A stretch of 64,000 bases of DNA from an uncultured Candidatus Saccharibacteria bacterium. GTDB taxonomy: Bacteria > Patescibacteriota > Minisyncoccia > Phycocordibacterales > PALSA-1337. Below the pieces are notes generated by a model. That model was not told where the DNA came from. It saw only the letters and a program-made list of their open reading frames with translations, and ran no database searches. Position numbers and translations under genes: made by a program. Below, piece after piece: positions 2,780 through 28,971 of this stretch (its first letter is position 1; each line of letters begins with the position of its first letter). The stretch is taken from contig CAYMGJ010000002.1 in the NCBI GenBank assembly GCA_964389975.1, positions 3,109 to 67,108 on the forward strand. The letters run 5' to 3'.

Positions 2780-5312
<2,533 letters not shown>

Positions 5313-11350: not shown

Positions 11351-11385
11351 CCTGAAGATTTTTTCATGTGCTATAATTACTCAAT

Positions 11386-12066: not shown

Positions 12067-12069
12067 ATT

Positions 12070-13026
12070 ATGATATTTACAACATTCAAAAGAATAACTC
12101 GATCAGGTTTCGTTAATTTTTGGAGAAATGGTTTCCTTTCTTTCTCTGCTGTTGTTGTTCTCACGCTCTCACTCGTTGCATTTGGTGCTCTCATTTTCAG
12201 TTCAGCATTTGGCCGAGCAATTCTTAAGGAGGTAAAGAGTAAGGTTGATATTAATGTATATTTCGTACTTGATGCAGAAGAGACAGATATTGTTGCCTTA
12301 AAAAAGACTATTGAGAATCTTCCTGAGGTGCAAACAGTTGAGTATGTATCACGTGATCAAGCTCTCGCTGATTTTAAGGACAAGTGGAAAGACAATTCCC
12401 TCATTCTTCAAGGTCTCGATGAGATTGGAGACAATCCATTTCCTGCAGTACTTAACGTGAAGGCAAAAGAACCTTCTCAGTATGCTGGTATCGCTCGATT
12501 TCTTGATAGCAAAAATTCTTTTTCAAAAGATGGTGTGAGTATTGTAGAGAAGGTTAATTACAATCAGAACAAACTTATTATAGATCGTCTTGGTCGTATT
12601 ATACCCGCAATTGAAAAGACAGGATCAATTCTCGCTATCATACTTATCATCGTTGCAATCATCATTACATTCAATACTGTTCGTCTCATTATATATACCG
12701 CAAAGGATGAGATATCAGTCATGAGACTTGTGGGAGCTTCAAATATGTATATTCGTGGACCTTTTGTAGTATCAGGAATCATGTACGGTATTATTTCAGG
12801 TATTCTCACACTCGGCGTTCTGGCACTTGTTGCTTTCTACAGTGATGCTCTCTTTATGAAATTTGCTGGAGTACAGGGTGCGCAAGATTTCGATCTCCTT
12901 ATGAATGTGTTCTCATCATATTTCGTAACTAATTTTGGACAAATATTTGCTCTCATTATGGGGTCTGGTGTGATATTAGGAGCCGTATCAAGTTACCTTG
13001 CTGTCAAGAGATACTTACGTATATAA
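12070..13026 (+). CDS. ftsX: Cell-division ABC transporter permease FtsX
   Basis: 318 aa; TM1, large periplasmic domain, three C-terminal TM helices; synteny with ftsE. Confidence 0.8.
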   Translation: MIFTTFKRITRSGFVNFWRNGFLSFSAVVVLTLSLVAFGALIFSSAFGRAILKEVKSKVDINVYFVLDAEETDIVALKKTIENLPEVQTVEYVSRDQALADFKDKWKDNSLILQGLDEIGDNPFPAVLNVKAKEPSQYAGIARFLDSKNSFSKDGVSIVEKVNYNQNKLIIDRLGRIIPAIEKTGSILAIILIIVAIIITFNTVRLIIYTAKDEISVMRLVGASNMYIRGPFVVSGIMYGIISGILTLGVLALVAFYSDALFMKFAGVQGAQDFDLLMNVFSSYFVTNFGQIFALIMGSGVILGAVSSYLAVKRYLRI

Positions 13027-13047
13027 TACAGAACAATATATACCTTT

Positions 13048-14739
13048 ATGAAAAAAGACACTGCACGAAAGACATCACACAGAAAGAAAAAAGAATCACT
13101 TAATCATAAATACATTTTTGTCGTCGGTGGTGTTATGTCAGGTGTTGGTAAGGGTATTGCCACTTCTTCTATCGGTACACTACTTCAAGCTCGTGGATTC
13201 AATGTTAACCTTGCAAAGGTTGATCCATATCTCAATGTTGATGCAGGAACCATGAACCCTACTGAACATGGGGAGGTTTTTGTGCTTAATTCAGGTCTTG
13301 AAACTGATCAGGATATGGGTAACTATGAACGATTTCTCAATCGTGATTTGATGCATGAGGACTATATCACTTCAGGAATGGTGTACAAACATGTGATCGA
13401 CAAAGAAAGAAATCTTGGATATGGAGGTAAGTGTGTAGAGGCTGTTCCTCATATACGTGATGAGATTGTTCGTCGTTATGAACATGCTGCAAAACTCAAT
13501 GATAGCGAAATATCAATTATCGAGATTGGAGGAACTGTAGGTGACTATCAAAACATTATGTTCATTGAAGCCGCTCGCGTACTGAAGATTAAACATCCTG
13601 ATGATGTGATCTTTATTATGGTTAGTTACCTACCTATCCCTTCTAAGATTGGGGAAATGAAATCTCGCCCTACTCAAAACGCTGTTCATCAGCTTGCTGG
13701 ATATGGAGTGCATACTGATATCATCATTGCTCGTTCTGAAGTTCCTGTCGACAAGAAGAGAAAGGAAAAGATTGGTGTTGCATGTAATCTTCCTGAAGAA
13801 AACGTCATATCTGCTCCTGATATTGATAGTGTCTATGATGTTCCTTTGAATTTCGAGAGGGACAAGCTCGGGGATATTCTTGTGAAGGCTCTTAAACTTG
13901 ATACTCGTAAGGGACCAGGGCTTTCTTCATGGAAGAGGTTTGCTGAGGGTATAAAGACAACAACAGAGGAGGTTCACATTGCTATCGTCGGTAAGTATTT
14001 TTCAACAGGAGATTTCGTACTTACTGATGCATACCTTTCGGTGCTTGAGGCAATTAAATATTCAGCACAGGAACATAAGGTGAAACCTGTTATACACACT
14101 ATCAATGCTCGTGATTTTGAGGTTGAAAAGCCACAGTACAAGTCGCTTGATATGTTCCATGGAATTATCGTTCCTGGAGGTTTTGGAGAAACTGGTATAG
14201 AGGGGAAATTAAATGTAATTCGATATGCTCGAGAAAACAAAATTCCATATTTCGGACTCTGCTACGGTATGCAATTAATGTCGATTGAATATGCCCGAAA
14301 CGTTCTTAATCTTAAAGGCGCTCAAACTGCTGAGATCAATCCAAAAGCAGAACATCTCATTATCGACATCATGCCTGATCAGAAGAAGAAGCTTCTTGAA
14401 AAAGACTATGGAGGAAGTATGCGATTAGGAACATATGAAGCACACCTTACCCCTGGAACTATAGCTCATAAGGCATATGGTACGAATGTCATTTATGAAC
14501 GACATCGTCATCGCTTTGAGGTGAATCCTGAATATGTAGAACGTCTCACTCATGCTGGTCTTGTGTTCTCGGGAACTTCTCCTGACAGGAAACTTATGGA
14601 AATCGCTGAGCTTCCTGAGTCAGTGCACCCATTCTTTCTAGGAACACAATTCCATCCTGAATTTCTTGCTCGTCCTCTTGCTCCACATCCTCTCTTTAGT
14701 CGATTTATACAGGTGAGTAAGAAGAGGAAGATAAATTGA
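13048..14739 (+). CDS. pyrG: CTP synthase
   Basis: 563 aa; N-terminal synthetase domain (VVGGVMSGVGKGI) and C-terminal class I glutamine amidotransferase (GLCYGMQ, HPEF). Confidence 0.95.
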   Translation: MKKDTARKTSHRKKKESLNHKYIFVVGGVMSGVGKGIATSSIGTLLQARGFNVNLAKVDPYLNVDAGTMNPTEHGEVFVLNSGLETDQDMGNYERFLNRDLMHEDYITSGMVYKHVIDKERNLGYGGKCVEAVPHIRDEIVRRYEHAAKLNDSEISIIEIGGTVGDYQNIMFIEAARVLKIKHPDDVIFIMVSYLPIPSKIGEMKSRPTQNAVHQLAGYGVHTDIIIARSEVPVDKKRKEKIGVACNLPEENVISAPDIDSVYDVPLNFERDKLGDILVKALKLDTRKGPGLSSWKRFAEGIKTTTEEVHIAIVGKYFSTGDFVLTDAYLSVLEAIKYSAQEHKVKPVIHTINARDFEVEKPQYKSLDMFHGIIVPGGFGETGIEGKLNVIRYARENKIPYFGLCYGMQLMSIEYARNVLNLKGAQTAEINPKAEHLIIDIMPDQKKKLLEKDYGGSMRLGTYEAHLTPGTIAHKAYGTNVIYERHRHRFEVNPEYVERLTHAGLVFSGTSPDRKLMEIAELPESVHPFFLGTQFHPEFLARPLAPHPLFSRFIQVSKKRKIN

Positions 14740-14772: not shown

Positions 14773-15426
14773 ATGAGGGGATATGGTATCTCTTCAGGAA
14801 AGGTAAATATGGGACAGGATATAACTCTTTTTGTTGAAAAATACGCCGCACTTATTCGTACCGAGGCTCTTAGACATTGTCCTTCAGACATGTATTCCAT
14901 GTGGGGAGATGATCTCTTTTCCGTTGCTCTTGCAAGGGCTGCAAAGCTCCTGCCGTCCTTCGGGGAACTTGAAGACATAGCTCCCCTCGTTCGTATGTGT
15001 GCTCGTCAGGGGGCAATTGATTTTCTAAGGCATATCGATCATATATCTCGTGGACGTCGAAAACTGTTTTTCGAGGGAAAGATGAGAGATCCGTTATGCA
15101 GATCGATATCCTATGACATGGAATCCTCTGAGGGTATGCTTCTTTCTGAAGCTATCGCTGATCCGTCTGTACTTACATCATGGCAGTTACTCTTAAGGAC
15201 GGAATTATCTCAGATACTCAACTCTGTTGTTTCTTGCCTTAATGATCAACAACGACAAATTGTTGCCCTATATCATTTTGAAGAACTCAGCTACAAAGAA
15301 ATTGGAAAGATCTTTCGTTTTTCTGAGTCACGCGTTTGTCAAATCCATGGTAAGTCTATGGCGCGACTTCGCCGGGAAATCTCTAGGAAATTCGAGCTGG
15401 GGTTTTGTGATCTACTACCTACGTAA
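14773..15426 (+). CDS. Sigma-70 family alternative sigma factor (FliA/sigma-28-like regions 2 and 4)
   Basis: 217 aa; region 4.2 HTH LSYKEIGKIFRFSESRVCQIHGKSMARLRR; region 2-like DDLFSVALARAAKL...; start may be the internal ATG at 14809; visibly GC-richer than neighbours. Confidence 0.7.
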   Translation: MRGYGISSGKVNMGQDITLFVEKYAALIRTEALRHCPSDMYSMWGDDLFSVALARAAKLLPSFGELEDIAPLVRMCARQGAIDFLRHIDHISRGRRKLFFEGKMRDPLCRSISYDMESSEGMLLSEAIADPSVLTSWQLLLRTELSQILNSVVSCLNDQQRQIVALYHFEELSYKEIGKIFRFSESRVCQIHGKSMARLRREISRKFELGFCDLLPT

Positions 15427-15520
15427 TGTGGCTATAGTATTTCACAAGGCTCCGGCCTTTTTGTTACAAAGGTGAACTTACTTGAATATTCTCTAATTTT
15501 AGGGTATTTTGTAATGACAT

Positions 15521-15594
15521 TGCCGGATCGTCTAAAGGTAGGACGTCGCTCTCTGAAAGCGAAAATTTTGGTTCGATTCCAAGTCCGGCAGCCA
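15521..15594 (+). tRNA. tRNA-Gln (anticodon CUG), CCA encoded
   Basis: Acceptor TGCCGGA/TCCGGCA with U1:A72 and G73 discriminator (both typical of tRNA-Gln), anticodon stem TCGCT/AGCGA loop CTCTGAA, T-arm TTTGG-TTCGATT-CCAAG, 3' GCCA. Confidence 0.85.
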
Positions 15595-15635
15595 GTTTGA
15601 GACACGTTCGGACTCCGAGGAGCCTGTAAAATGCA

Positions 15636-16853
15636 ATGGCTAACAAAAAATCTAAAAAACAAAAAAGGAAGAAAACTCTACCTGTGGGATGGAAAAAAGA
15701 TGGGAAGAATTACCTCTATTATTTCAAGCCTAAAATCGCAAATACATATAAGATCAAAAAAATAGATTTTATAGGATTTGAAGTACCTCCAAAGGGCTTG
15801 AATTTATATGGGACGGGAGGTGGCTTTAATATGCGTCAAGCTAATAAGGTGGGAGGGAGTCATTTTTTGGCGTCCATAGAGAACAAATATAAAAAACAGA
15901 TTCATCTGACGATATTCAGCAACGGAAACGGTTCTAGGTCATTCAAGATCTTAAATAAGAACATTTCAATATCTCTTTCCTTTGAAAACTTTTCTGAAGT
16001 TATAAAGGATCTGGGTTATGAGATTAAGGCCAATCGAGACAAGGTTGTTATTAAGAGGTTGGCAAATTTTTTCCCAAAGGAGCTCTCTGCAGATCAAACG
16101 AGCGATTCTGCCGGAGCTAAGCTTGGAGATATTAACTTGAATGCTTTGGATGAAATAGGGCACGAGGCAGTTGCTGATTTTATAAAAAAGTATATTTCCT
16201 TGAATGCTGAAAATAATGAGGTATTAGAAAAGCTGCAAACAAATCTTGTTCTTCAGGGACAGAAGAAGACTCTTGATCAGGTCATAGCTAAGTTCGAATC
16301 TCGTTTGAAGGACGATGATTTGGATGAAAAGGACTGGCAAAAGTTTTTGCACGAGGAAGTGTTTTTCTTTCTTTCTAATTATGTTGAATCTATCAGGGAG
16401 ACAAATGTGAGTTTTGGTATGGCTGATGAAAGAGAAAGAAAGCCAGATTTCGTTTGGATCGATCTTTACGGATTTCTTGATGTGTTTGAGATAAAAACGC
16501 CGCAAACTGAGATTCTGGCAAAGAAAATTGATGACAGTCACGATAACTATTATTTTTCTCGATACGCTTCAATGGCAATCTCTCAGATCGAGAAATATAT
16601 GCTCTATTTGGAAAGAAATATTGATAATTATCAAAAATATCTTTCCCGTCAAACAAAGATTCCATTCTCGGTACTAAAGCCAAAAGCTTTCTTAATTATT
16701 GGCAACACGAAAGAATTTGAGACAAATGAAAAGAAGAAAAGAGATTTCAGAGTATTAAGGAGACTCTTCAAGAATATTGAGTTTATTACTTTTGATGAGC
16801 TTTTAGATAACCTTAAGAACTTGGCAAGCAAATTTGAAAAAGAAAAAAAATGA
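15636..16853 (+). CDS. Shedu-like anti-phage nuclease candidate (C-terminal DUF4263 PD-(D/E)xK domain; Lys-rich N-terminus and variable N-domain)
   Basis: 405 aa; C-terminal region matches DUF4263 landmarks: KDWQKFLHEEVF, PDFVWIDLYGFLDVFEIKTP (D...D-x-x-E-x-K), QIEKYMLYL (QxxxY), FLIIGNTKEF, EFITFDELLDNL; immediately 3' of tRNA-Gln. Confidence 0.6.
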   Translation: MANKKSKKQKRKKTLPVGWKKDGKNYLYYFKPKIANTYKIKKIDFIGFEVPPKGLNLYGTGGGFNMRQANKVGGSHFLASIENKYKKQIHLTIFSNGNGSRSFKILNKNISISLSFENFSEVIKDLGYEIKANRDKVVIKRLANFFPKELSADQTSDSAGAKLGDINLNALDEIGHEAVADFIKKYISLNAENNEVLEKLQTNLVLQGQKKTLDQVIAKFESRLKDDDLDEKDWQKFLHEEVFFFLSNYVESIRETNVSFGMADERERKPDFVWIDLYGFLDVFEIKTPQTEILAKKIDDSHDNYYFSRYASMAISQIEKYMLYLERNIDNYQKYLSRQTKIPFSVLKPKAFLIIGNTKEFETNEKKKRDFRVLRRLFKNIEFITFDELLDNLKNLASKFEKEKK

Positions 16854-17425
16854 AAAAAAGTGATGTGCTACAACTAATTAAAAATGATCCATGGATGATG
16901 AATATCATCCATATCGCCGAAAAGCTCAACCTTCCAGACTGGGTAATCGGAGCTGGTTTTGTCAGGAATAAGGTATGGGATCATTTGCATGGATATTCAA
17001 ATAAGGAAGTGGATACCCGGGACATCGACTTGGTGTATTTCGATCCAAATGGAAATGACCAGAAAGCAGATGAAGAACTATCATTGAAGCTTACCAAAGA
17101 AACCGGAATAAGCTTTGAGATAGTAAATCAGTTCTATGCCCATAAATGGAACGGCATACCCCCATACACTTCTACAGAGGATGCTATAGCTACATGGCCA
17201 GAAACGGCAACGGCTGTAGGAGTGACCTTGAAGGATGGTGAGCTTTGGCTAATTGCTCCATACACCATTGATGATATGGTTAATGTGATAGCTCGTCCAA
17301 GCCCTAGATTCAAAGGAAATCTTGAGGTGGTTAAGAAAAGAGCAGAAAGCAAGAAGTGGACGGAGAAATATCCAAAACTCAAGTTTGAGGATGTTTGGCC
17401 ATCGTTCCGAGAAGGGTCAAAATGA
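16850..17425 (+). CDS. Minimal nucleotidyltransferase-fold protein (pol-beta superfamily)
   Basis: 191 aa; hGxG...DxD signature IGAGFVRNKVWDHLHG...DIDLVYFD; ATGA start/stop overlap with the upstream Shedu-like gene (translational coupling). Confidence 0.55.
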   Translation: MKKSDVLQLIKNDPWMMNIIHIAEKLNLPDWVIGAGFVRNKVWDHLHGYSNKEVDTRDIDLVYFDPNGNDQKADEELSLKLTKETGISFEIVNQFYAHKWNGIPPYTSTEDAIATWPETATAVGVTLKDGELWLIAPYTIDDMVNVIARPSPRFKGNLEVVKKRAESKKWTEKYPKLKFEDVWPSFREGSK

Positions 17426-17776
17426 CATACTTAGATACTCCTGAAAACCCTTGTGATGCTCGTGGTCTGCTTTTGTATGCTCGTCCAATTCCAAACTCAA
17501 GCGGTACCGTTTGTCCTTCATCTCTTGCAACTTTTTGTCATACTCAACACGTGCAATACTCTGGTCAATCAGTAAGTCCATCAATCGGTTTATACGAAAC
17601 TGTAGGGCATTGTATTCGCTCTGTACACGTCCAACCTGTGCGTGATGGTATTCCACTTCGTTCTCGTTTGTCTTTCGTAGCTCGGTTACAAGATGTTCAA
17701 TAACGACATCGGGTATGTCGCTGAACTTTTGGAATGCTTGGGAGCTTCGTTGTTGTGTATGAAAGTCATCTTTCAT
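17417..17776 (-). CDS. Hypothetical coiled-coil protein (possibly a gene fragment)
   Basis: 119 aa, charged/helical, no recognisable motif; opposite strand, wedged between the island genes and a pseudogene. Confidence 0.3.
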   Translation of the reverse strand: MKDDFHTQQRSSQAFQKFSDIPDVVIEHLVTELRKTNENEVEYHHAQVGRVQSEYNALQFRINRLMDLLIDQSIARVEYDKKLQEMKDKRYRLSLELDEHTKADHEHHKGFQEYLSMSF

Positions 17777-17828
17777 ACGCTTTACTTTAGTTTACAGATG
17801 GTAGGAAAGCAATCTATAATGAAGTCTC

Positions 17829-18140
17829 TATGGAAGAGATTAAAAAAGATGAAGCGTTAGCAAAACTATCCAAGCAAAACGTGTATACAGGATTTAAGGT
17901 CTTGTTTAGTTATTTGGGTCTTTATAAGCGACAGATAATAGCGAGTCGTTTGAGGAACTTATGAAGAATAGAACGACCTTCATTATTGCTCACAGGCTTT
18001 CGACGGTCAGAAAAGCTGATAGTATCCTTGTTTTCAAGGAAGGTTCGATGATTGAAAAAGGGACGCATTCAGAATTGTTAAAAATTGAAGGAGGTGAATA
18101 TCGACGCCTATACGAGTTACAAATAGGACTTACAGAGTAA
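17829..18140 (+). pseudogene. Decayed C-terminal fragment of an ABC exporter ATP-binding domain (MsbA-like)
   Basis: Two frames read ...YKRQIIASRLRNL* (ABC signature/Q-R-Q-R-I-A-I-A-R-A-like remnant) then, frameshifted with Walker B deleted, MKNRTTFIIAHRLSTVRKADSILVFKEGSMIEKGTHSELLKIEGGEYRRLYELQ (H-loop and C-terminal tail); no TMD or Walker A upstream. Confidence 0.6.
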
Positions 18141-18384
18141 GCTGGTTAAGCGGCTTTATGCGGAGATAAGCGTAGGAAAAATGCTCGTAATCGTCATTTC
18201 CTTGCTGATTTGAGCCCAATTGATAGTTCTGAACGTGTCCACGAACCGCAATCAACTTCAGATAGGTTCTGAGTCCAAACATGTGCTAGGCAAGATTTTT
18301 GAATCTGTCTTAATTAGATCGGGGGACACCATCTTTGTGACATAGCTATATTCTTCGGTGTATATAATTTGATATAATTTATGC

Positions 18385-19029
18385 ATGAAGATTTTGTATG
18401 AAGTCAAACGAATCGAAGTCAAACGTACGTTTGTTATAGCAGATCATGTTGCTCATATGCATAACGGTAAGAAGTTAGGTAATAATCGTACTTTCTTAAA
18501 GAATATTTCTGAACAAGAATTTGAAAAAAAGTTAAGAGATATAAAATCAAAAATTTTGAAACTCAAAGAAAAAGATATAGACAAGTTGGTATCTCCTGAA
18601 TATGCCAAAAGAATTGAGGCATATAATAAGAGTAAGTGGTTTTTGGTAGAAATAAGTCCAAAGGAGCTTGGGGTGTGGAAACGAGCTGGTGGATTACCCC
18701 TGAGATGGACTAATCAGAGTTTGGTTGAAACGGCTGAAAAGGTAAGAAGAGGTTTTCTTCGAAATTCAAAATCTCTTAAAAGAAGGCCTAAACATACCAT
18801 TCCAAATATCTTAAATATAAAAGATCATATGCAACAAAGAGAGAAGTATCTGTATCCGATAGTATTTAAAAATGACACAGGAACACGAGGTAGAAAAAGA
18901 TTAAAAAGAAAGATGGTGGGTGATATTGATGATGGAAATATGAGATCTATTGCCTTGGCGATGAGTGGAAAGAATACACTCATTGTCTATTTCGGAGTTC
19001 CAACACATTCCCATGAACCACAAACCTAA
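18385..19029 (+). CDS. Hypothetical basic protein
   Basis: 214 aa, Lys/Arg-rich, no motif recognised. Confidence 0.45.
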   Translation: MKILYEVKRIEVKRTFVIADHVAHMHNGKKLGNNRTFLKNISEQEFEKKLRDIKSKILKLKEKDIDKLVSPEYAKRIEAYNKSKWFLVEISPKELGVWKRAGGLPLRWTNQSLVETAEKVRRGFLRNSKSLKRRPKHTIPNILNIKDHMQQREKYLYPIVFKNDTGTRGRKRLKRKMVGDIDDGNMRSIALAMSGKNTLIVYFGVPTHSHEPQT

Positions 19030-19201
19030 AAAGACCCCACTTATCATCTTGGGTATAACATCACTCGTTCTTTCTCGAGTAGCTTTTACTTTGATCAATG
19101 ATCCTGAAGGTCCAAATCTTCTCATTGTCGTAGTGCTTGCATTCATCATATTCATACCTCTTTATATAGTGTATTCTTTTGTGTCATCTCGATATAGGTG
19201 A
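19013..19201 (+). CDS. Small two-TM membrane peptide (hypothetical)
   Basis: About 62 aa from internal Met (MNHKPKKTPLIILGITSLVLSRVAF...FIIFIPLYIVYSF); overlaps the 3' end of the previous ORF in another frame. Confidence 0.3.
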   Translation: MNHKPKKTPLIILGITSLVLSRVAFTLINDPEGPNLLIVVVLAFIIFIPLYIVYSFVSSRYR

Positions 19202-19381
19202 TATGACTGCCTTACGAAAAACATGGAAAAGTTATGAATGTGTTGCGTCATATTTTAACTCTCTTCTCATTAGGTGCTTACAATATAGCGACGACACTTC
19301 ATTCAAGTGTTATGATTATAACTAATACCATTATGGTAGTGTTTATTGTGAGAAAGAAGGGGAGATGATATTATCCACATT

Positions 19382-19930
19382 ATGAAGAAAGAAATTGAGG
19401 TAAAAGTGAAGGTGTCTGATATTGATTCAGTTATAAAGTCACTATCAAATCTGGGGTGCATTTTGAGTGAACCAGTTACTCAAAATGATGTTGTTTATAT
19501 AAACTATAATCGCCCATTTATCGATTTCAGAGAAGGGGATATATTTCTACGTATTAGGAAGACGCAAGGTAAGGTGATATTCACTCTTAAGAAGGGAGAG
19601 GAAATGAATTCTATAGAAAAAGAATTTTCCGTAGATGATGCACAACAACTTCATGACACCCTCACACTTCTTGGCTTTCGTCCTGAAGTTGAAGTGACAA
19701 AAATACGGAGGAAGACTTCATATAATAATTATGAAATTTGTATTGATGATGTTCCTGGGCTCGGTTTCTTTATTGAACTCGAAGAAATCACAGAAAATGA
19801 TGCTATTGTTACTCAAAATGCAATGATTAATTTTCTAAACTCTATCGGTATAGATACAAAAGATAGAGTTATGAATGGATATGACACGCTTACATGGCTC
19901 AAGAATAATCCAGGACATCCTGTGAATTGA
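19382..19930 (+). CDS. CYTH-domain protein (class IV adenylyl cyclase CyaB / triphosphate tunnel metalloenzyme fold)
   Basis: 182 aa; N-terminal EIEVKVKV (ExExK) motif, FLRIRK...GKVIFTLKKGEE, later LGFFIELEEI acidic strand; length and motif order typical of CyaB-like CYTH. Confidence 0.75.
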   Translation: MKKEIEVKVKVSDIDSVIKSLSNLGCILSEPVTQNDVVYINYNRPFIDFREGDIFLRIRKTQGKVIFTLKKGEEMNSIEKEFSVDDAQQLHDTLTLLGFRPEVEVTKIRRKTSYNNYEICIDDVPGLGFFIELEEITENDAIVTQNAMINFLNSIGIDTKDRVMNGYDTLTWLKNNPGHPVN

Positions 19931-19954
19931 TACAAAAGCTACATTTAAAATTCT

Positions 19955-20407
19955 ATGAATAATCGATTGCCACTTGAAATATTTGCTATATATCTTTCTC
20001 CATATTCAGCTCATGCCATTGAAGTAGATGGAAAGGTTTTTCCAACACTCGAACATGCATATCAATGTCAGAGGTATACAGATGACAGTATTATTGAAGA
20101 GATTCGCAAACAAAGGAGTCCTGTGTTGGCTTGGGAGACATCCTCAAGATATAAACACATACAGATTCCGGAATTCAAGAATGAAAATTATAAGTTAAAA
20201 GTTATGGAATATCTCATGCGTCTCAAGGCTTCGCAACATGAGGAGATACGAAAGATATTACGAGATTCAGGTAATATACCTATTGTAAAACATATCACCA
20301 CATATCCACCTGGTGATGGATTTTGGGATGATGGAGAAGATGGTACGGGTTTTAATCATATAGGAAAAATATGGATGAAAATTCGTGAAGAATTAAGAAA
20401 TAATTAA
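19955..20407 (+). CDS. NADAR-domain protein (YbiA-like; ADP-ribose/N-glycoside processing fold)
   Basis: 150 aa; EHAYQCQRY, LAWETS, KLKVMEYLMRLKASQHEEIRKILRDSGNIPIVKHI, DGFWDDGEDGTGFNHIGKIWMKIREEL match the NADAR (DUF1768) pattern (F-x-G-x-G-x-D-G-x-G-x-N-x-L-G). Confidence 0.7.
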   Translation: MNNRLPLEIFAIYLSPYSAHAIEVDGKVFPTLEHAYQCQRYTDDSIIEEIRKQRSPVLAWETSSRYKHIQIPEFKNENYKLKVMEYLMRLKASQHEEIRKILRDSGNIPIVKHITTYPPGDGFWDDGEDGTGFNHIGKIWMKIREELRNN

Positions 20408-20412
20408 AATCA

Positions 20413-20838
20413 ATGCAGTCAGACATAATTTCATATCTTAATAGTCAATCAGTTGGAGTTCTTGCTCTTGAGAGAGTAGATGGTGCTCCTCATGGAGCCA
20501 CACTTCACTATGTATATAGCCCATCTTTGAATGCGCTACTTTTTGAAACTCACAAAGACTCTCGTAAGGCAGAGTTATTGATATCAAAGAATACAGCCCG
20601 AGCATCATTTGTTGTGGGAACAGATGAATCAACCAAGATAACACTTCAGATAGATGGGAGTGTTCATATTCTCACTCAAGAAGAAAGGATAATCTTTGAA
20701 CAGGAGTATATTAGAAAGTTTCAGAAAAAAGCTGAGAAGATGAAGAGTGATGCTATTGTCTGTTTCAAGCTTGTTCCTCATTGGTGGAGATTTATCGATT
20801 GGTCATCTTCAGAGGGGAAGAAGGTGTTAACATCTTAA
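20413..20838 (+). CDS. Pyridoxamine 5'-phosphate oxidase-like FMN-binding split-barrel protein (general stress protein 26 family)
   Basis: 141 aa; size and pattern (GVLALERVDGAPHGATLHYV...) of PNPOx-like small FMN-binding proteins. Confidence 0.55.
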   Translation: MQSDIISYLNSQSVGVLALERVDGAPHGATLHYVYSPSLNALLFETHKDSRKAELLISKNTARASFVVGTDESTKITLQIDGSVHILTQEERIIFEQEYIRKFQKKAEKMKSDAIVCFKLVPHWWRFIDWSSSEGKKVLTS

Positions 20839-20864
20839 CCATGTATATTTGATATACTATAGCA

Positions 20865-21029
20865 ATGGACTCAAAACAACTCATATGGATAGGTATGATT
20901 GTTGGATCAGGAATCGGAGGATTTATCCCCGTGTTGTGGGGTGATGGAATGTTCTCCTTCTCTTCAATTATCTTCTCTGCACTTGGTGGCATTCTCGGTA
21001 TTTATGGAGCTTTTAAATTAACACGATAA
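20865..21029 (+). CDS. Small Gly-rich membrane peptide (54 aa), hypothetical
   Basis: ORF below the 60-aa track threshold: MDSKQLIWIGMIVGSGIGGFIPVLWGDGMFSFSSIIFSALGGILGIYGAFKLTR; its TAA overlaps the ATG of tspO (TAATG). Confidence 0.35.
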   Translation: MDSKQLIWIGMIVGSGIGGFIPVLWGDGMFSFSSIIFSALGGILGIYGAFKLTR

Positions 21030-21424
21030 TGCAATCATACTCATGGTATCAATCTTTACTTAAACCAAGTTGGGCACCACCCTCATGGATTTTCGGTCCT
21101 GTATGGACTGTCCTCTATGTACTCATAGCTCTATCGTATGGATATGTGGGGTATCTTTTCTTCACTAAGAGAATACCTTTCATTGTCATTCTTCCATTCA
21201 TTCTCAATATCATTTTTAATGTAATATTTACCCCCATTCAGTTTGGTCTCAAGAATAATATACTCGCAGCAGTCGATATTATATGTGTTCTCGGAACACT
21301 CATATGGGCAGTTATCGCTATATATCCGTATGCACGATGGGTGTCATATATCAATATTCCATATCTTCTCTGGGTTTGTTTTGCAACTGTGTTGCAAGTA
21401 ACCGTTACCTCTATGAATCGATAG
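21029..21424 (+). CDS. tspO: TspO/MBR family tryptophan-rich sensory protein (short form)
   Basis: 131 aa; hallmark WYQSLLKPSWAPPSWIFGPVWTVLY N-terminus and 4-5 TM helices; shorter than typical (about 155 aa). Confidence 0.8.
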   Translation: MQSYSWYQSLLKPSWAPPSWIFGPVWTVLYVLIALSYGYVGYLFFTKRIPFIVILPFILNIIFNVIFTPIQFGLKNNILAAVDIICVLGTLIWAVIAIYPYARWVSYINIPYLLWVCFATVLQVTVTSMNR

Positions 21425-21466
21425 AGATTGACTCAAATCTCTTTCACGCTAGTATATAGTTAGACT

Positions 21467-22615
21467 TTGAAAATTAAAGAAAGGTATTCTATGAACATAC
21501 AGCCGCATTCAATTATCGGTTTACCTGGTCATGTAAAAATCGCCACTCTTACAGGTGGTCCGTGTGGTGGTAAGACGGGTGCACTTGCACATCTACGAGA
21601 TCGGTTCTCTTCTCGGGGGTATCGAGTGTTTGTTGCTCCAGAATCTGCAACATCTATTGTGCAACAGGGTATGAGTCGAAATGTGGTGGGAGGTCGCAAG
21701 TTTCAACACCTCATTGTCAGAGATACATTGTTTAGACAATCTGAAATCGTTAATACTGCATGTTCATCTTCCCAGAAAACTCTCATTCTTTTTGATCGAG
21801 GGATTCCTGATGGAAGAGCGTATATTGAAGAGGGGGATTATGTAGACATCCTCACTCATTATGGTCTGACGCATCATCAGGTGTGTCACGAGAATTGTCA
21901 CGGTGTTTTTCATCTTCGTACCACCGCACACGGTGCGGAGAGTTTCTATACCCTGATGAACAATCAGGCTCGTACTGAAACACCCGAACAAGCTCGGGAG
22001 CTTGATGGAAAAACTCTCGATGCATGGAGAGCACACCCTCACGTGAGAGTGTTTGATAACAACACAACGTTTGAGGGGAAGCTTCATCGAGTGTACGCCG
22101 AAATCTGTTCTCTCATCGGTGACCCTCTTCCGCTCGAGTGTGAACGGAAATTTCTCATTTCTGACTTCAGTATTAGGGACATACCTGTGCCATGTGCTGA
22201 AAGTCATATCGTTCAAGACTATCTCGTATCATCTTCGATTCAGAGTGAGATGCGTGTACGTGCACGAACTGACAGGTTTGGAACTTCGTATTATTTCACG
22301 ACAAAAACTCCTATTAGTACAGGAGTTCGTATTGAACAAGATCGACTCATCTCTGGGGCAGAGTACAGGGCACTTCTTGCCTTAAGAAATTTAGAAACAC
22401 ACACAATTAAGAAAAAGAGAATTTGTTTTTTCTATGATGAGCAGTTGTGGGAAATCGATATCTATGGTGATCATCATCGTGGTTTAGTCACCATGGAAAT
22501 CGAACTCTCCGACCGTAATTCACAATTCAAGATTCCTGATTTTTTCAACAGTGTAATCGAAGTTACTGGAAACAAAGAGTATTCGAATGCATGGCTTGCT
22601 GGATTGAGGAATTGA
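21467..22615 (+). CDS. Fusion protein: NadR/RNK-like P-loop nucleoside kinase domain (AAA_28-type) plus C-terminal CYTH domain
   Basis: 382 aa; Walker A GGPCGGKTG, DRGIPDGRAY; C-terminal ERKFLISDF (ExKF) ... TMEIELSD ... EVTG pattern of a CYTH triphosphate tunnel; GC-richer than flanks. Confidence 0.6.
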   Translation: MKIKERYSMNIQPHSIIGLPGHVKIATLTGGPCGGKTGALAHLRDRFSSRGYRVFVAPESATSIVQQGMSRNVVGGRKFQHLIVRDTLFRQSEIVNTACSSSQKTLILFDRGIPDGRAYIEEGDYVDILTHYGLTHHQVCHENCHGVFHLRTTAHGAESFYTLMNNQARTETPEQARELDGKTLDAWRAHPHVRVFDNNTTFEGKLHRVYAEICSLIGDPLPLECERKFLISDFSIRDIPVPCAESHIVQDYLVSSSIQSEMRVRARTDRFGTSYYFTTKTPISTGVRIEQDRLISGAEYRALLALRNLETHTIKKKRICFFYDEQLWEIDIYGDHHRGLVTMEIELSDRNSQFKIPDFFNSVIEVTGNKEYSNAWLAGLRN

Positions 22616-22685
22616 TTCACAGAAGCTCGGGGAGAAAATCCCCCAGCTTCTTTTTTTTGTGATAGAATGGTGGGGAATTTTAATT

Positions 22686-23033
22686 ATGAAGACATACACA
22701 ACTATCGATGAGTACATTCTGTCTTTTTCAGATGGGGTACAAAATACATTACAACAATTACGGAAGACAATTCATGCAATCGCTCCTGAAGCCGTAGAAG
22801 ATATTAAGTATGGAATTCCAACTTTTGTACTGAAGGGTAATCTCGTTCATTTTGGCGCCTATGAAAAACATATTGGTTTCTATCCAACTCCATCTGGTGT
22901 CGCTGCATTTAAGAAGGAGATTTTAAATTACAAACATTCAAAGGGTGCTATTCAATTTCCTCTTGATGAACCACTTCCTCTTGATCTCATTCGGAAAATT
23001 GTTGCATTTCGTGTGAAAGAAAATCTAGCTTGA
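22686..23033 (+). CDS. DUF1801 (YdhG-like) domain protein
   Basis: About 115 aa from MKTYTTIDEY; pattern IKYGIPTF...HFGAYEKHIGFYP typical of DUF1801; track ORF begins 27 nt earlier. Confidence 0.55.
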   Translation: MKTYTTIDEYILSFSDGVQNTLQQLRKTIHAIAPEAVEDIKYGIPTFVLKGNLVHFGAYEKHIGFYPTPSGVAAFKKEILNYKHSKGAIQFPLDEPLPLDLIRKIVAFRVKENLA

Positions 23034-23061
23034 ATAAAAAAGATAGTATATACTTAATTAC

Positions 23062-23187
23062 ATGGCAAAAAGAAAAAGTGCAATCACAAAATCATCCCGA
23101 TCTCGCAAGACAGCAAAACGACGTGCAATTAAGCATGCGTTTCTAAAAGCAAAAGCTGCAAAGCGCGGTAAGAAGGGAAAGAAATAG
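23062..23187 (+). CDS. Small highly basic peptide (41 aa), hypothetical
   Basis: MAKRKSAITKSSRSRKTAKRRAIKHAFLKAKAAKRGKKGKK; below track threshold; followed by a terminator hairpin. Confidence 0.25.
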   Translation: MAKRKSAITKSSRSRKTAKRRAIKHAFLKAKAAKRGKKGKK

Positions 23188-23199
23188 TGTACAAAGAAA

Positions 23200-23223
23200 A
23201 AACAGTCACGAGACTGTTTTTTC
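23200..23223. terminator. Bidirectional hairpin terminator between convergent genes
   Basis: AAACAGTC-ACGA-GACTGTTT flanked by A-run and T-run. Confidence 0.55.
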
Positions 23224-23225
23224 TT

Positions 23226-24491
23226 TTACTGACCCGCAGACATCCCTGCAATATATCCTGTTGTCCAACACAACTGAAGACTATATCCTCCTGATGGTCT
23301 ATCTATGTTGAGAACATCTCCACTTACATAAAGATTATGTATCTTCTTTGATTGCATGGTTTTGAAATCAATCTCATTTAAATCAATTCCTCCAGAAGAT
23401 ACCACTGCTTTATCCGATCCGAGAAGTCCGCTAATTTGAAGTGGAATGCCTTTAAGTGAATCTATGAGCCTCATTCGTTCTTCACGAGTTATACTATTGT
23501 TATTCTTCTCTCCATCAATACGTGCAAAGCCAAGTGATATTTCAACAAGTCGATGGGGAATGAGAGAATCAAGTGAGTTTTTTATCTTCTTCTTGTCATC
23601 TTTTTTAAAGAGTTCTTGTAGTGTTGTATTTAACATTCCATGATCGAGATGGGGTAGAAGATCGATTCTCATCTCCACATCTCCATATTTAAGGAGTTCC
23701 CCAATATCCTTACTCATATTCAATACCGTCGGTCCACTTATCCCAAAATGAGTAAAGAGAATCTTACCCTTATGTGATTCTTGTTTCTGATTGTTTTGAT
23801 ATGTTGTAAGTTTTACATTGGTCAATGCAAGTCCCTTCAAGTTTTTTGCCCATCCATCTCGGGTGGCGAGTGGCACAAGAGCATCATTGGTAGGGATGAC
23901 GGTATGGCCCATATCTTTAAACCAATTAAAACCTTCTCCTGTTGATCCTGTTTCAGGTCGTGATGTTCCTCCTGTTGCTATGATATATTTTTTTCCTCGT
24001 ATAACTTTCTTGTTTTTAAGAACAATACCTTGTATTTCTTGTTTTGTGTGTTCAATACGAAGAACAGGGGAATCGGTAAGTATTTCAACACCTCCTTCTT
24101 TCATATATGATACAAGTACATCCCATACTGATTGAGATGAGTTACTTACGGGAAAAACTCTCTTTTCCGCTTCAACTTTTGTTGGCATACCACGTGAGTT
24201 GAAGAAGGTAAGTGTGTCTTTCACATTAAACTGAGAGAATGCTGAAAAAAGATATTTGTCACTCTCTTTATATTTTTTGAGAAAAACACGGACATCCTCT
24301 TCGGCATTGGTAACATTACAACGTCCACCACCCGTGATGAGGAGCTTCACACCAAGACTAGGATTTTTCTCTATGAGTATGACTTTCCCTTTGCCATGCA
24401 GTGCATGTGCAGCTGTACCCGCCGCCATCATGCCAGCAGGTCCTCCTCCTACAACAACAACATCATATTCAGGGATATCCATATATCTCAT
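23226..24491 (-). CDS. HI0933/YhiN-family FAD-dependent flavoprotein (BaiN-like)
   Basis: About 421 aa from MRYMDIPEYDVVVVGGGPAGMMAAG (Rossmann GxGxxG), ...ITGGGRCNVTN...; the track ORF extends 63 codons upstream with no sequence support. Confidence 0.85.
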   Translation of the reverse strand: MRYMDIPEYDVVVVGGGPAGMMAAGTAAHALHGKGKVILIEKNPSLGVKLLITGGGRCNVTNAEEDVRVFLKKYKESDKYLFSAFSQFNVKDTLTFFNSRGMPTKVEAEKRVFPVSNSSQSVWDVLVSYMKEGGVEILTDSPVLRIEHTKQEIQGIVLKNKKVIRGKKYIIATGGTSRPETGSTGEGFNWFKDMGHTVIPTNDALVPLATRDGWAKNLKGLALTNVKLTTYQNNQKQESHKGKILFTHFGISGPTVLNMSKDIGELLKYGDVEMRIDLLPHLDHGMLNTTLQELFKKDDKKKIKNSLDSLIPHRLVEISLGFARIDGEKNNNSITREERMRLIDSLKGIPLQISGLLGSDKAVVSSGGIDLNEIDFKTMQSKKIHNLYVSGDVLNIDRPSGGYSLQLCWTTGYIAGMSAGQ

Positions 24492-24513
24492 TTTACCATG
24501 AATACGATATACT

Positions 24514-25023
24514 ATGAGTATGAAAAAGGTAATGGTCAATGACATGATGCAAAGTGGGTATGAATATGAGCTCACTGAGCCTATGGGAAAAAACTTTGAT
24601 TCTGAGTTCAATCCTGAACTTACCCCACAAGAGATGCTGGAACTCGGAGTCTTCGGTGGCAAGTATATGACCGATTGCAAAGATGAATTTCCTTCAGATT
24701 GGTTTACTCATGCAAAGCTCTGTCATGAGAAGCATGATGCCCAACTCAATCTCTTTGGTGCCAATGCAAGTCAGCCACTCTCAATATGGAAAGCAAAGGG
24801 ATGGATTTACAAAGATGATCCTCGTGGATGGTTTCAATGGTATTGTCGCTACTATATGGGACGACGTATACCAGAAGAAGATACACGACAAATACAGAGA
24901 TGGAAAGCTATACGAAGACATATTGTGCAGGTGAAAAACAATTGCAGGGAAGGAGATATTTTCTGTAGGGCACGTCAACGTCAGGCGATTCTTCACTGGG
25001 CATATGATAGCAGGAGGATATAG
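24514..25023 (+). CDS. Hypothetical Trp/Tyr/Arg-rich protein (conserved-looking, unassigned)
   Basis: 169 aa; motifs ELGVFGGKYM, RGWFQWYCRYYMGRR, RWKAIRRH; divergent from the flavoprotein gene with a 22-nt spacer; GC-richer. Confidence 0.45.
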   Translation: MSMKKVMVNDMMQSGYEYELTEPMGKNFDSEFNPELTPQEMLELGVFGGKYMTDCKDEFPSDWFTHAKLCHEKHDAQLNLFGANASQPLSIWKAKGWIYKDDPRGWFQWYCRYYMGRRIPEEDTRQIQRWKAIRRHIVQVKNNCREGDIFCRARQRQAILHWAYDSRRI

Positions 25024-25052
25024 GGGAATGTTGATAAACTGAATATCAAAGG

Positions 25053-28000
25053 ATGCTAATATATACACATATGCATCCCCGTCAAACAATTCTTGGTCTC
25101 TTTCTCAGTGTTGCTCTCGTATCGGTATTCATATATACAAGTATTAATCTCCTTGAACCATCTCTTGTTCAGCCTACATCTCAGCCTGCAGCAGTTTCAG
25201 ATTTCAACTCATCCCTCATTGCCCACTACACTTTCGATGATGGAACAGCAACTGATGCAACGGGGTCACATGCAGGAACAGTTTCAGGAGCTACAGCAAC
25301 AGAAGGAAAGATTGGTGGAGCACTTGCTTTTGATGGTGCAACTAACTATGTAGATCTTGGTGACATGACTGCAGTGGAAGGGCAAAGTGCTCTTTCAGTA
25401 TCTATGTGGGTAAAGAACAATGCTTCTGCTAATGTTTCAGGAGGGGATACTATGATATCCAAGGAAGGTTCAGGAGCTGATACTCTCTCCTTGTCATGGG
25501 CTCAAAATGAAGACGTATCATTTTGTCTTGTAGGTAGTACATCAGGTGTGAGTTGTGGTGGAGCAGATACCGCAACCGCATCATATGTTGATGGTATTCC
25601 CGAGGGAAGTGGTACTAATTGGAATCACATTGTTGGAGTTCTCGATTCTGGTACAGTTAAAGTATATGTAAATGGTATTCAAGGGGGAGTGGCAGGAACT
25701 CTTTCTTCCCCTACTCAAAACAGTGTTCATTCTCTTAAAATTGGTTCCACATGGGCAGGCTCCATCGACGATGTCCGTATCTACAACAAAGCACTATCTA
25801 CTCAAGAAATTGCAGATCTCTATGCACTTGGTGGAGGAGTGGTAGGTCAAGCACCACCACCTCCCGTTACACCACCAACAGATCCTGCTACCCCTCCTGT
25901 TACACCACCAGTTACCCCACCCACCACTCCTCCTGTACAAGAAGTGAGTGTACGAAGTACTGCTCCATCTCCTGTATCATGGACTCCTCCCATTGGTATT
26001 CCTGAACCTCCATTTGGTATTCGTGAATCTCACTATATGTATCAATTAGGTACCAATGAAACTTGTACTACTACTCCTCACAAATGCTATGACTTCGGCT
26101 CAGGTCTTGAACCATATCGTGATGCTGGTGCTGGGCCATATACTCATTATATTGATCCAAGCTCTCCTTCATGTACCAATACTTCAAATCCCTATGGAAC
26201 GAAGACAAAGCCGAGGTGTGGAATACCTGCTATGACAAGTATTGTTCCTGGGTCTGTTGTTGAATTACATGGAACGTATGACAGGACAAATGCGGGGAAT
26301 CTCTGGACATTCACTGTTCATGGTACTTTAGAGAAACCAATTTTTGTTCGTGGAGAATCTCAGCAAAACAAAGTTGCCATTACAAATATACCTTTACGAG
26401 TCAGATCTTCATATACCATTTTCGAGAATCTCCATATGATAACGGGTAAGGTTGATATTCGTGCTGCAGATGCTGTAGAAAATGTCTCATATGTTTCTCT
26501 ACGACATTCTGATCTTACCAATGAATCGTCAACGGGTGTTAATGGGTATACTAATAACGCTTCAAAGTATGTAGTCTTCTTTGACAACAAGGTGTATACG
26601 GATAACTTTGATCTTAATGGCCCTGAATTTCCTGAACGTGATGTCCATGGAATTGGTTTTGCTGCATACGCAGAAAATGTATGGATTGTGGACAATGATA
26701 TTCGAGGAATGTCAGGTGATGCCATTGGTAATGGTCATGGGGGACAATATACAGTGAAGAATTTCTATATCGGACGAAATCTTCTCCATGATACTGGAGA
26801 AAATGCCGTTGACCTCAAAGAGGTTGAAAACTTTGTTGTGTCTCAAAACAAAATGTATAACTTTAAAGGCCTTTCATCAGGATCTGATGGTGGTGCTGTC
26901 GTTATCCACTACGGGCCAGCTGTTTCTCCCAAGAATGCATGGTTTCTCTTCAATGAGATATATAATGCAACGGATGTCGGAATTCAAGTGGGTGGAGATC
27001 AGGTCTATGATTCATTTTTCATAGGTAATATTGTTCACGATATTCATAATTCATCACTTACTGGTCTTGCATTCACAACGTGGAATAGTTGTACGATGTA
27101 TTTTGTCCATAATGTTTTCTACAACAATGATAACGGAGTGAAGGCCATGAGTTCTGGAGGCTGTACTAAGCTCATTTTTCAAAACAATATTGTATCGAAT
27201 TTCCAGAACCCAAATCCTATGGCATTTTCAATGACAAACAATGCTACTTTCCTCGCTGTCTCAAAGGTATCAAACAATATCTTCTATCAACCAGGAAAGA
27301 CCTTAAATGTAGTTTGTACTGGTTGCCTCGAATCTAACCCTCTCTTCAACAACCCTTCTTCAAATGATTTCTCACTACAATCAGGATCACCTGCAATCAA
27401 TACTGCTGACAATACGATTATGGAAGACCTCGCTTCCCGTTTCTATACATCCTATGGTATTGATATACGTAAAGATTTTCTAGGAAACAATCGAAGAGCA
27501 AATACACCATGGGATATTGGTGCATATGAATATGGAGCAACGGGTGGAACTCAACCACCTCCAGCTGTTGTTGTTCAACCAACAGACACCCTTCCTCCAA
27601 GTCCAGCAGGAATGGCTGTAACAAACATCACTTCAAACAGTGCTACTGTTTCGTGGAATACCTCTGAGGCAGGTACAACCCAAGTTGAATATGGCCTCAC
27701 TACTGCATATGGTAATACTACAACTCGAGTTTCAACATATACAACATCTCACACACAGAATCTCTCAAATCTCCAAGGGAATACCCTCTACCACTATCGT
27801 GTAATATCTCTCGATCAAGCAGGGAATGTAGGTATTTCTCCTGATCAAACCTTCACCACCCTTACCTCAACAGACAATGATGGTGATGGTGTGCTCAATG
27901 CAGTTGATCGATGTCCACTTACACCTTCTTCATTGAGAACTATGGTTAATACCTATGGATGTCCTCTTCCTCGCACTACTCGATTCACTCTTTCTCTTAA

Positions 28001-28916: not shown

Positions 28917-28950
28917 TGATTGATTTCCCCAACCTCTTTGTGATTGATGT

Positions 28951-28966: not shown

Positions 28967-28971
28967 GTACT

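Follow-up and report, generated by a model that had tools for sequence, protein, structure and literature searches.

YbiA is an N-glycosidase that acts on GTP-derived phosphoribosylamino-pyrimidines of the riboflavin pathway. NADAR domains, such as that of YbiA, are also said to have been described by de Souza and Aravind in 2012 from NADAR-Nudix(-Macro/SLOG) gene neighbourhoods that process NAD+ and ADP-ribose. An association of NADAR with Nudix proteins is known from NAD and ADP-ribose networks (Iyer et al. 2022, PMC9503650). The NADAR classes are defined by one residue, which is Glu in NADARs of the YbiA type and in general ones, Asp in those associated with DarT1, and His in those of phages (PMC11543638, PMC11125620, PMC12945103). 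Mutation of this residue (E125 in the P. nicotianae NADAR, D171, E167) abolishes activity (PMC11125620, PMC12945103), a Lys-to-Arg exchange at the basic residue is tolerated in vitro (PMC11125620), and guanine-ADP-ribose is hydrolysed in vitro by each NADAR class that has been tested (PMC11125620, PMC12945103). The physiological role of stand-alone NADARs is an acknowledged open question (PMC11125620, PMC11543638). Here we describe a stand-alone NADAR gene of an uncultured Candidatus Saccharibacteria bacterium that lies between genes for a CYTH protein and a PNPOx-like protein. The window, the whole stretch of DNA that was analysed, comprises 64,000 nucleotides of contig CAYMGJ010000002.1 (positions 3,109 to 67,108; assembly GCA_964389975.1).

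The three open reading frames (ORFs) lie on the + strand with intergenic gaps of 24 and 5 nt, and two independent assemblies of this organism carry them, L001 (GCA_013572825.1) and L002 (a Logan contig). The closest homologues of all three proteins are in metagenome-assembled genomes of Patescibacteria, the lineage that also goes by the name candidate phyla radiation (Paceibacteria, Parcubacteria, Taylorbacteria, Zambryskibacteria, and others), which places the window in a bacterium of this radiation. Strand, spacing and domain content all agreed with a preliminary description made from the sequence alone, and each protein scored above its Pfam gathering cut-off: CYTH (PF01928) at 6.7e-18, 65.6 bits versus 23.2; NADAR (PF08719) at 6.1e-16, 59.5 bits versus 35.1; and PNPOx_N (PF01243) at 1.9e-8, 35.1 bits versus 28.1. 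The motifs that the description quoted, EIEVKVKV in the CYTH protein and DGFWDDGEDGTGFNHIG in the product of 19955-20407, are present. It had also failed to recognise the combination as a described system, and none was found in the searchable literature, where NADAR is mentioned neither with CYTH in a relevant sense nor in Patescibacteria; the work of de Souza and Aravind from 2012 lay outside that search, so an earlier mention of CYTH is possible. All three superfamilies and the NADAR-Nudix association were already known. The new part is the partnership with CYTH and PNPOx-like proteins and a NADAR clade with lysine at a catalytic position. The best explanation, which we advance tentatively and would not yet call probable, is that the trio is a facultative sub-cluster of chromosomal accessory enzymes within a loosely conserved neighbourhood of small nucleotide-handling and stress genes, engaged in nucleotide housecleaning or salvage by a sequential route from CYTH or NUDIX through NADAR to the PNPOx-like protein.

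Facultative linkage of NADAR to predicted nucleotide phosphohydrolases

The linkage of the genes was evaluated from both sides. For NADAR, 51 species loci were fetched and searched with tblastn and hidden Markov models (HMMs), and a set of 50 species, regarded as unbiased, was used to count direct neighbours. For CYTH, 80 metagenomic loci were examined, with the positive control satisfied on L136-L141. Two further look-ups (L136 and L139) were targeted at contigs that apparently carried both a CYTH and a NADAR match, and six other close CYTH orthologues were chosen blindly. Two CYTH subfamilies that can barely be aligned with each other are distinguished in the following: type A, the CYTH of the trio, and type C, which resembles NeuTTM.

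In 4 of the 50 Patescibacteria species, one of the two genes next to the NADAR orthologue is a CYTH gene. It is type A in L010, the sole locus among the 51 in which type A stands directly upstream of NADAR, and type C in L037 and L041, where it lies downstream of NADAR, and in L049, where it lies upstream. The CYTH-NADAR pair is also found in L139 and L142. Locus L136 has all three genes on one strand, permuted to PNPOx-NADAR-CYTH and separated by 9 and 1 nt; a simple inversion cannot give rise to this arrangement. In the five loci with the type A pair the flanking genes all differ, and the pair itself is spaced by no more than 24 nt. We conclude that the link between NADAR and CYTH is real yet facultative. 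A conclusion drawn earlier from the 51 species loci and 80 CYTH loci, that the trio is not conserved, was dropped in view of the pairs in L139 and L142 and the permuted trio in L136. P0236/P0081 was rejected as a further linked pair because there is no NADAR on that contig.

The association is not limited to CYTH. The 92 direct neighbours of NADAR orthologues fall into 74 Pfam families, among which NUDIX is the most common with 13 genes, followed by His_Phos_1 and CYTH with 3 each (Pfam E <= 0.001). NUDIX genes occupy 13 of the 92 adjacent positions versus 15 of the 564 remaining positions of those loci (odds ratio 6, p = 2e-5). These counts come from an iterated HMM; a regular expression for the Nudix box had missed most of the NUDIX genes. 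The NUDIX neighbours most resemble pyrophosphohydrolases of (deoxy)nucleoside triphosphates of the NudI, NudG or MutT type, all at scores under the cut-offs, and are not like ADP-ribose pyrophosphatases. Other neighbours include NTPase_I-T, UDG and guanylate kinase. Thus NADAR is statistically associated with predicted nucleotide tri- and pyrophosphatases of two unrelated folds, most often NUDIX and in addition CYTH of two subfamilies.

Coding density in the window is 88%, 41 of 56 neighbouring gene pairs are co-directional, and same-strand runs extend to 12 genes. Gaps between genes on the same strand have a median of 21 nt, and 59% of them do not exceed 30 nt. Because of that median, the tight spacing of the trio is not above the background of the window and is uninformative by itself. 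The preliminary description had suggested an operon on the basis of adjacency; the non-random link between the genes bears this out in part, and the spacing, being ordinary, does not. Under neutral juxtaposition the trio would consist of unrelated small accessory genes packed tightly, and its recurrences would reflect inherited gene order rather than selection. The diversity of neighbours suits this explanation, as does the diversity on the CYTH side, where each of the 133 direct neighbours has a Pfam family of its own; so does a neighbor-joining tree in which the type A positives are confined to two small clades mixed with negatives. It does not readily account for a pair that stays within 24 nt while its flanks change, for the permuted order in L136, or for a second, distantly related CYTH subfamily on either side of NADAR in three more species. 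Adjacency is also above chance expectation, with Fisher p = 0.016 relative to the positions of these loci that are not adjacent to NADAR, and binomial p from 1e-5 to 1e-3 relative to genome-wide chance with 1 to 3 CYTH genes per genome, p-values that are optimistic in that related lineages are not independent samples. We regard neutral juxtaposition as unlikely.

That optimism is one of several points that weigh against a functional sub-cluster. About 46 of the 50 NADAR orthologues (about 90%) are without an adjacent CYTH gene. A PNPOx-like gene was found in 0 of the 51 NADAR species loci by tblastn and HMM searches, and neither NADAR nor a PNPOx-like gene was found in any of the 80 metagenomic CYTH loci, a result that also speaks for neutral juxtaposition. 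Five of the six blindly chosen close CYTH orthologues are unlinked, and the remaining one (L142) has NADAR directly downstream. The proteins have evolved at unequal rates, with identities of about 70% for NADAR, 47-63% for CYTH, and 25-79% for the PNPOx-like protein, of which four lineages are known. Co-transcription is deduced from spacing that is normal for this genome. In addition, the Lys at the position of the catalytic Glu, described below, means that neither YbiA-like nor ADP-ribosyl-hydrolase chemistry can be assumed for NADAR. The preliminary description had proposed profiling CYTH-NADAR adjacency across genomes: it proved to be non-random and recurring (4 of 50 species plus L136, L139, and L142) and at the same time a minority pattern.

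The third gene gives a different picture when the linkage is viewed from its own side. Only 3 homologues of the PNPOx-like protein were found in 5.8 billion clusters, and one further full-length homologue, 25% identical (blastp 4e-18), is encoded in L136; on these sequence comparisons the protein is rare and fast-evolving. It adjoins NADAR in three of the four known lineages (the window, L055, and L136); in the remaining one the contig breaks off 38 nt beyond the gene. The NADAR-PNPOx link is therefore strong from the rare PNPOx side. In L055, the closest relative (NADAR 85% identical), the adjacency of NADAR and PNPOx is kept and the upstream gene is not CYTH, which counts in favour of neutral juxtaposition. 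The PNPOx-like protein presumably binds flavin. Its sequence matches in the PDB reached only E = 0.2, and an AlphaFold2 model computed from a three-sequence alignment was unusable (mean pLDDT, the predicted local distance difference score, 46.9).

In the proposed route of housecleaning or salvage, CYTH, or NUDIX in other genomes, would first dephosphorylate a tri- or diphosphorylated ribosyl compound, for which a damaged or non-canonical nucleoside triphosphate (NTP) and a nucleotide derived from NAD or ADP-ribose are candidates. By analogy with the action of YbiA on phosphoribosylamino-pyrimidines, NADAR might then cleave the N-glycosidic bond of the resulting phosphoribosyl compound, and the PNPOx-like protein might handle the released base by redox chemistry. 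If the cluster is just a loose neighbourhood, the finding is an ordinary one. As it stands, core-like conservation in ultra-small bacteria together with NTP pyrophosphatase and triphosphatase neighbours of two folds offers a lead on what stand-alone NADARs do.

The lysine-variant NADAR clade

The closest relative of known structure is Escherichia coli YbiA (2b3w), matched at 2.9e-19 and, with a profile, at 1e-22; the alignment of the core begins near residue 13 of the 150-amino-acid NADAR. The clade to which the protein belongs is very tight. For example, identity is 65-85% for the 120 best of 388 homologues, an alignment of 32 sequences has 46 invariant columns, and an exhaustive search of 1.84 billion cluster representatives gave 7481 NADAR representatives, of which only 11 scored below 1e-30. 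Identity of NADAR across species is 68-75%, versus 56-61% for release factor 2 (RF2), 62-71% for FtsE, 44-52% for FtsX and 70% for PyrG in the same loci (L004, L010, and L014; window 10466-14739). Judged by these sequences, NADAR is conserved as strongly as core proteins of the same loci, which is not typical of an "accessory" enzyme; the clade is near-core and shares about 70% identity among Paceibacteria-type Patescibacteria.

The first catalytic Glu (E33) and the phosphate-binding basic residue (R40, at the K50/K95 position) are invariant, and D121/W124 are conserved. At the position of the catalytic Glu of YbiA, however, the protein has K112 (codon 20288-20290), which is invariant in the 32 subfamily members. 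K112 was aligned with the YbiA Glu in three independent ways, by phmmer, by profile and by HMM. In the 150 cluster representatives closest to the protein (174 aligned domains), this column is E in 96 and K in 29. W60 co-varies with the Lys, being present in 17 of the 29 K-type and 1 of the 96 E-type domains, and D125 co-varies in the tight subfamily. The protein stayed below the cut-offs of more specific models, with 55 bits versus 73.7 for the riboflavin-glycosidase equivalog TIGR02464 and 52.6 bits versus 240 for the anti-phage NADAR model NF053876 (DS32_2). Sequence comparison thus places it as a NADAR by fold and most motifs, yet outside every characterised class. A phage or viral origin of CYTH and NADAR was considered and rejected: no relatives of NADAR and just two weak ones of CYTH were found in IMG/VR. 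Phage NADARs are at most 36% identical to that of the window.

The hydrolysis of guanine-ADP-ribose by every class tested, with the conservation of E33, R40 and the D121/W124 motif, raises the alternative that NADAR strips ADP-ribose from guanine or cytosine of DNA or RNA modified by foreign ADP-ribosyltransferase (ART) toxins, as an orphan-antitoxin-like immunity, or serves RNA-end repair, with CYTH and NUDIX acting on RNA 5' ends or on by-products that carry a triphosphate or derive from ADP-ribose. Strong conservation would be in keeping with a protective housekeeping function in epibiotic bacteria exposed to toxins, and a tRNA_bind protein follows NADAR in L142. However, Lys replaces the essential Glu or Asp (E125, D171, or E167) in every member, the protein is without the N-terminal DNA-binding extension found in NADARs associated with DarT1, and the NUDIX neighbours do not resemble ADP-ribose pyrophosphatases. 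No ART domain was seen in the neighbours within the window or among the families listed for the 92 neighbours of NADAR orthologues, and Macro, SLOG and sirtuin were likewise not among the families listed, which were the best 25 for each neighbour set. We therefore consider reversal of ADP-ribosylation or RNA-end repair, too, an unlikely function. Taken together, the core-like conservation, the recurrent neighbours and the loss of an acidic residue that tested NADARs need to hydrolyse ADP-ribosyl-guanine hint at small-molecule nucleotide chemistry more than at toxin reversal.

A bolder version of the housecleaning or salvage route can be formulated, which we consider doubtful and distinctly speculative. 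Lys-variant NADARs would be a fifth catalytic type, nearly core in Patescibacteria, acting downstream of interchangeable type A CYTH, type C CYTH or NUDIX enzymes and served in some lineages by a dedicated PNPOx-like flavoprotein. Together they might make up a hitherto undescribed pathway of two or three steps, by which organisms unable to make nucleotides would destroy damaged ones or recover ribose phosphate from those that they scavenge.

CYTH proteins and the cyclase annotation

Determinants that separate class IV adenylyl cyclases from other CYTH proteins have been specified by Vogt et al. (2021, PMC8233210): the motif HFxxxxExExK, replacement of the first Arg of xRxR by V, C or L, and replacement of the second Glu of ExE by Ala. 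In the CYTH protein of the trio, EIEVKVKV occupies residues 4-11, and E4-I-E6-V-K8, the ExExK motif, is invariant in 40 homologues. Only M-K-K precedes it, and no HF motif is present in any of the 40 aligned homologues. The RxR motif is L56-R57-I58-R59 and the ExE motif is E132-L-E134, and both Arg and both Glu residues are invariant in the same 40. Residue 55, before RxR, is F in the window and F, I, V, L, or Y across the family, and not the conserved W/Y of thiamine triphosphatases. The register of the motifs was set by alignment with the best structural match, SaTTM (7ns8, 3.8e-14; A54-L-R56-L-R58 and F-I-E135-I-E137), and with the more distant cyclase YpAC-IV (4.5e-5; HFVGKYEVELK and F-A-E-I-A). 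SaTTM is a triphosphatase that forms no cyclic nucleotide (PMC8233210). Because HF is absent and both Arg of RxR and both Glu of ExE are kept, the protein is, as far as sequence can tell, a triphosphate-tunnel metalloenzyme (TTM) of the phosphohydrolase type and not a class IV adenylyl cyclase.

This assignment is at odds with the NCBIfam model TIGR00318, "class IV adenylate cyclase," which the protein passes with 85.8 bits versus 57.95. Annotations based on TIGR00318, like archaeal-type "cyclase" annotations, have been found unreliable (PMC8233210). Several homologues from Patescibacteria (P0129, P0153, P0191, and P0219) are named "class IV adenylate cyclase" by NCBI and JGI, apparently through this model. 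Such naming of patescibacterial CYTH proteins is probably a systematic mis-annotation in view of their motifs, and claims of cAMP signalling in Patescibacteria that rest on it would be unfounded.

The preliminary description had read the CYTH protein as a cyclase and placed the trio immediately after a defence islet. It had proposed that a CYTH cyclase and an ADP-ribose-removing enzyme could form a signalling or damage-reversal module. The corresponding rival explanation is a signalling or defence module in which CYTH would act as a nucleotide cyclase and NADAR would degrade or reset a signal derived from ADP-ribose, and which would be functionally tied to the islet. In addition to the TIGR00318 score and the weak similarity of NADAR to the anti-phage model, there is indeed a Shedu gene nearby, beside tRNA-Gln and an integrase fragment. 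"Immediately" was imprecise, since 2.5 kb separate the end of Shedu from the start of the trio and contain NTP_transf_6, the integrase fragment, an ABC-ATPase fragment and then a 214-amino-acid protein without an assigned family. The cyclase determinants are all absent, and therefore the idea of a cyclase plus a signal loses its basis. PADLOC gave no match for the three proteins or for a neighbouring AAA_28-CYTH fusion, and no ADP-ribosyltransferase, effector or sensor was seen among the neighbours in the window. The anti-phage NADAR model was missed by a wide score, homologous pairs elsewhere do not lie beside Shedu or other defence genes, and the conservation of NADAR is that of a core gene rather than of a defence gene. 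We thus regard such a module as highly improbable.

The fusion protein provides a second CYTH domain, of type C, 1 kb from the type A CYTH. Pfam and NCBIfam report only its N-terminal half, with AAA_28 at 3.1e-18 on residues 28-203. Residues ~223-378 match NeuTTM NE1496 (2fbl/3typ) at 3e-6, with ECERK, RVR, and EIE aligned to the TTM motifs. Genes beside NADAR in L037 and L041 that matched the fusion in tblastn were considered as NadR-like kinases and rejected as such; they encode stand-alone type C CYTH proteins that match the C-terminal domain of the fusion. The window shares with several metagenomic loci a tendency of CYTH paralogues to cluster; in those loci a divergent paralogue lies 1-4 kb from the type A CYTH (L077/L078 2375-2965, L131 3758-4369, L133 739-1335, and L096/L098 6218-6760).

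Gene array, surroundings and known counterparts

The features of the locus are collected in Table 1. The same-strand array does not stop at 20838 and takes in four further genes up to 23033 (gaps of 26, -1, 42, and 43 nt), which makes the boundary of the trio arbitrary. On the + strand from 19488 to 22628 the sole terminator-like site is a weak 5-pair match at 21612-21626, inside the AAA_28 gene. The trio is probably co-transcribed within a longer array from 19382 to about 22640, instead of forming a closed operon of three genes. The frequency of promoter-like sites here does not exceed that in shuffled sequence, so that the site upstream of CYTH is weak evidence. A riboswitch or structured leader upstream of CYTH was rejected: an Rfam scan of 17700-23300 gave no credible match (best E = 0.037, far under the gathering score), and the 186-nt leader folded no better than shuffles (z = -0.32). 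The gap upstream of CYTH (18965-19366) holds small ORFs that are hydrophobic and membrane-like, one of 78 amino acids from 18965, probably with a shorter product from an ATG inside, and one of about 44 amino acids at roughly 19235-19369.

Table 1. Features of the window in and around the CYTH-NADAR-PNPOx trio
Feature	Coordinates	Strand	Basis or remark
tRNA-Gln	15521-15594		
Shedu SduA gene	ends 16853		PADLOC 2.6e-30
NTP_transf_6 gene	16850-17425		4-nt overlap with end of Shedu gene
Integrase fragment, 119 aa	17417-17776	-	PHROG integrase, profile positions 424-513 of 651
ABC-ATPase C-terminal fragment, 59 aa	17961-18140		
Promoter-like site TTGTGA-17-TATTAT with upstream TG	19346..19374	+	Consensus scan; 8 nt 5' of CYTH start codon, inside 352-nt gap
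CYTH/triphosphate-tunnel metalloenzyme, 182 aa, putative phosphohydrolase type (type A)	19382..19930	+	Pfam, PDB match, motifs
NADAR (YbiA-fold) protein, 150 aa, Lys-variant clade	19955..20407	+	Pfam, YbiA 2b3w match
PNPOx-like split-barrel protein, 141 aa; flavin binding presumed	20413..20838	+	Pfam PNPOx_N
Predicted small membrane protein, 54 aa	20865..21029	+	ORF; homologue adjoins TspO in L034
TspO/MBR family membrane protein	21029..21424	+	Pfam TspO_MBR 1.7e-28
AAA_28 P-loop kinase-like + NeuTTM-like CYTH (type C) fusion, 382 aa	21467..22615, alternative start 21491	+	
Terminator-like hairpin GGGGAGAAAATCCCC then T-rich tail	22629..22643	+	First one 3' of cluster
DUF1801 protein, last gene of same-strand array	22659..23033	+	Pfam DUF1801 1.6e-16

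The stretch from 15521 to 18140 is probably the decayed remnant of an element that integrated at the tRNA gene. A direct repeat of the 3' end of tRNA-Gln, or any other att-like repeat, was not found in 15400-25200, and GC content is somewhat low (0.34-0.37) over 18.5-20.5 kb without sharp edges. In L136 a tyrosine integrase gene (3132-4016, - strand) lies directly upstream of PNPOx-NADAR-CYTH. This gene and the integrase fragment of the window hint that the cluster may sometimes move with integrative elements.

The wider surroundings of NADAR share genes with the window. TspO occurs within 4 kb of NADAR in L007, L034, and L053, and DUF1801 is found again close to CYTH in L145/L146 and close to NADAR in L027. 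TspO, the 54-amino-acid protein, NTP_transf_6, DUF1801, HI0933-like and RF2-FtsEX genes each reappear in a few species at up to 6 kb from NADAR. These recurrences fit a loosely syntenic chromosomal neighbourhood, not a mobile cassette. NTP_transf_6 recurs with 62% identity at L017 8126-8665 and L019 1477-2016, 2-4 kb from NADAR, and no Shedu match was found there; NTP_transf_6 may belong to the nucleotide-enzyme neighbourhood rather than to the defence system. The RF2 ORF of the window (10466-11350) begins at position 75 of the PCRF profile, which would fit the usual programmed +1 frameshift, the N-terminal part then being encoded in another frame. Beyond the region studied, 25053-35055 holds two very large same-strand ORFs of 1287 and 2027 amino acids.

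The closest described counterpart of the CYTH protein is SaTTM (Saci_0718), likewise a single domain of about 180-200 amino acids with ExExK, A/x-x-R-x-R, and ExE with both Glu residues. Identity is ~30%, however, SaTTM is archaeal whereas the CYTH described here is bacterial (Patescibacteria), and adjacency to NADAR, found here in a subset of genomes, concerns a context that has not been reported for SaTTM. The class IV adenylyl cyclases (CyaB and YpAC-IV; 2fjt, 3n0y) share the CYTH fold, ExExK, and a TIGR00318 score above the cut-off, but have the HF extension, a residue other than Arg at the first RxR position, and Ala in ExE, none of which applies to the CYTH of the trio. The AAA_28 fusion recalls plant TTM1 and TTM2, in which a P-loop kinase-like domain is also fused to CYTH. 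In the plant proteins that domain is of the phosphoribulokinase/uridine kinase type and ExExK is lacking, whereas the fusion is bacterial, has an AAA_28/NadR-like domain, keeps ExExK in its CYTH, and is without a C-terminal membrane anchor.

For NADAR, YbiA is the nearest model, as a stand-alone core fold (150 versus 160 amino acids) with the first catalytic Glu, the basic residue, D-x-x-W, and G-x-N-x-x-G in common. The Glu in LVEHT of YbiA is Lys here (IVKHI), a 4-residue insertion before DGFW, W60, and D125 are specific to the clade described here, and no riboflavin-synthesis gene was seen among the domain calls of the window and of the neighbours of NADAR orthologues. The DarTG1 system shares the NADAR domain and a small gene in a tight same-strand cluster, but here there is no neighbouring DarT or other ART, the class-defining residue is Lys and not Asp, and there is no N-terminal DNA-binding extension. 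With the NADAR-Nudix(-Macro/SLOG) neighbourhoods the loci studied here share a significant association of NADAR with NUDIX; in contrast to them, the partners described here include CYTH/TTM proteins of two subfamilies and a PNPOx-like protein, and the NUDIX proteins look like NTP pyrophosphatases.

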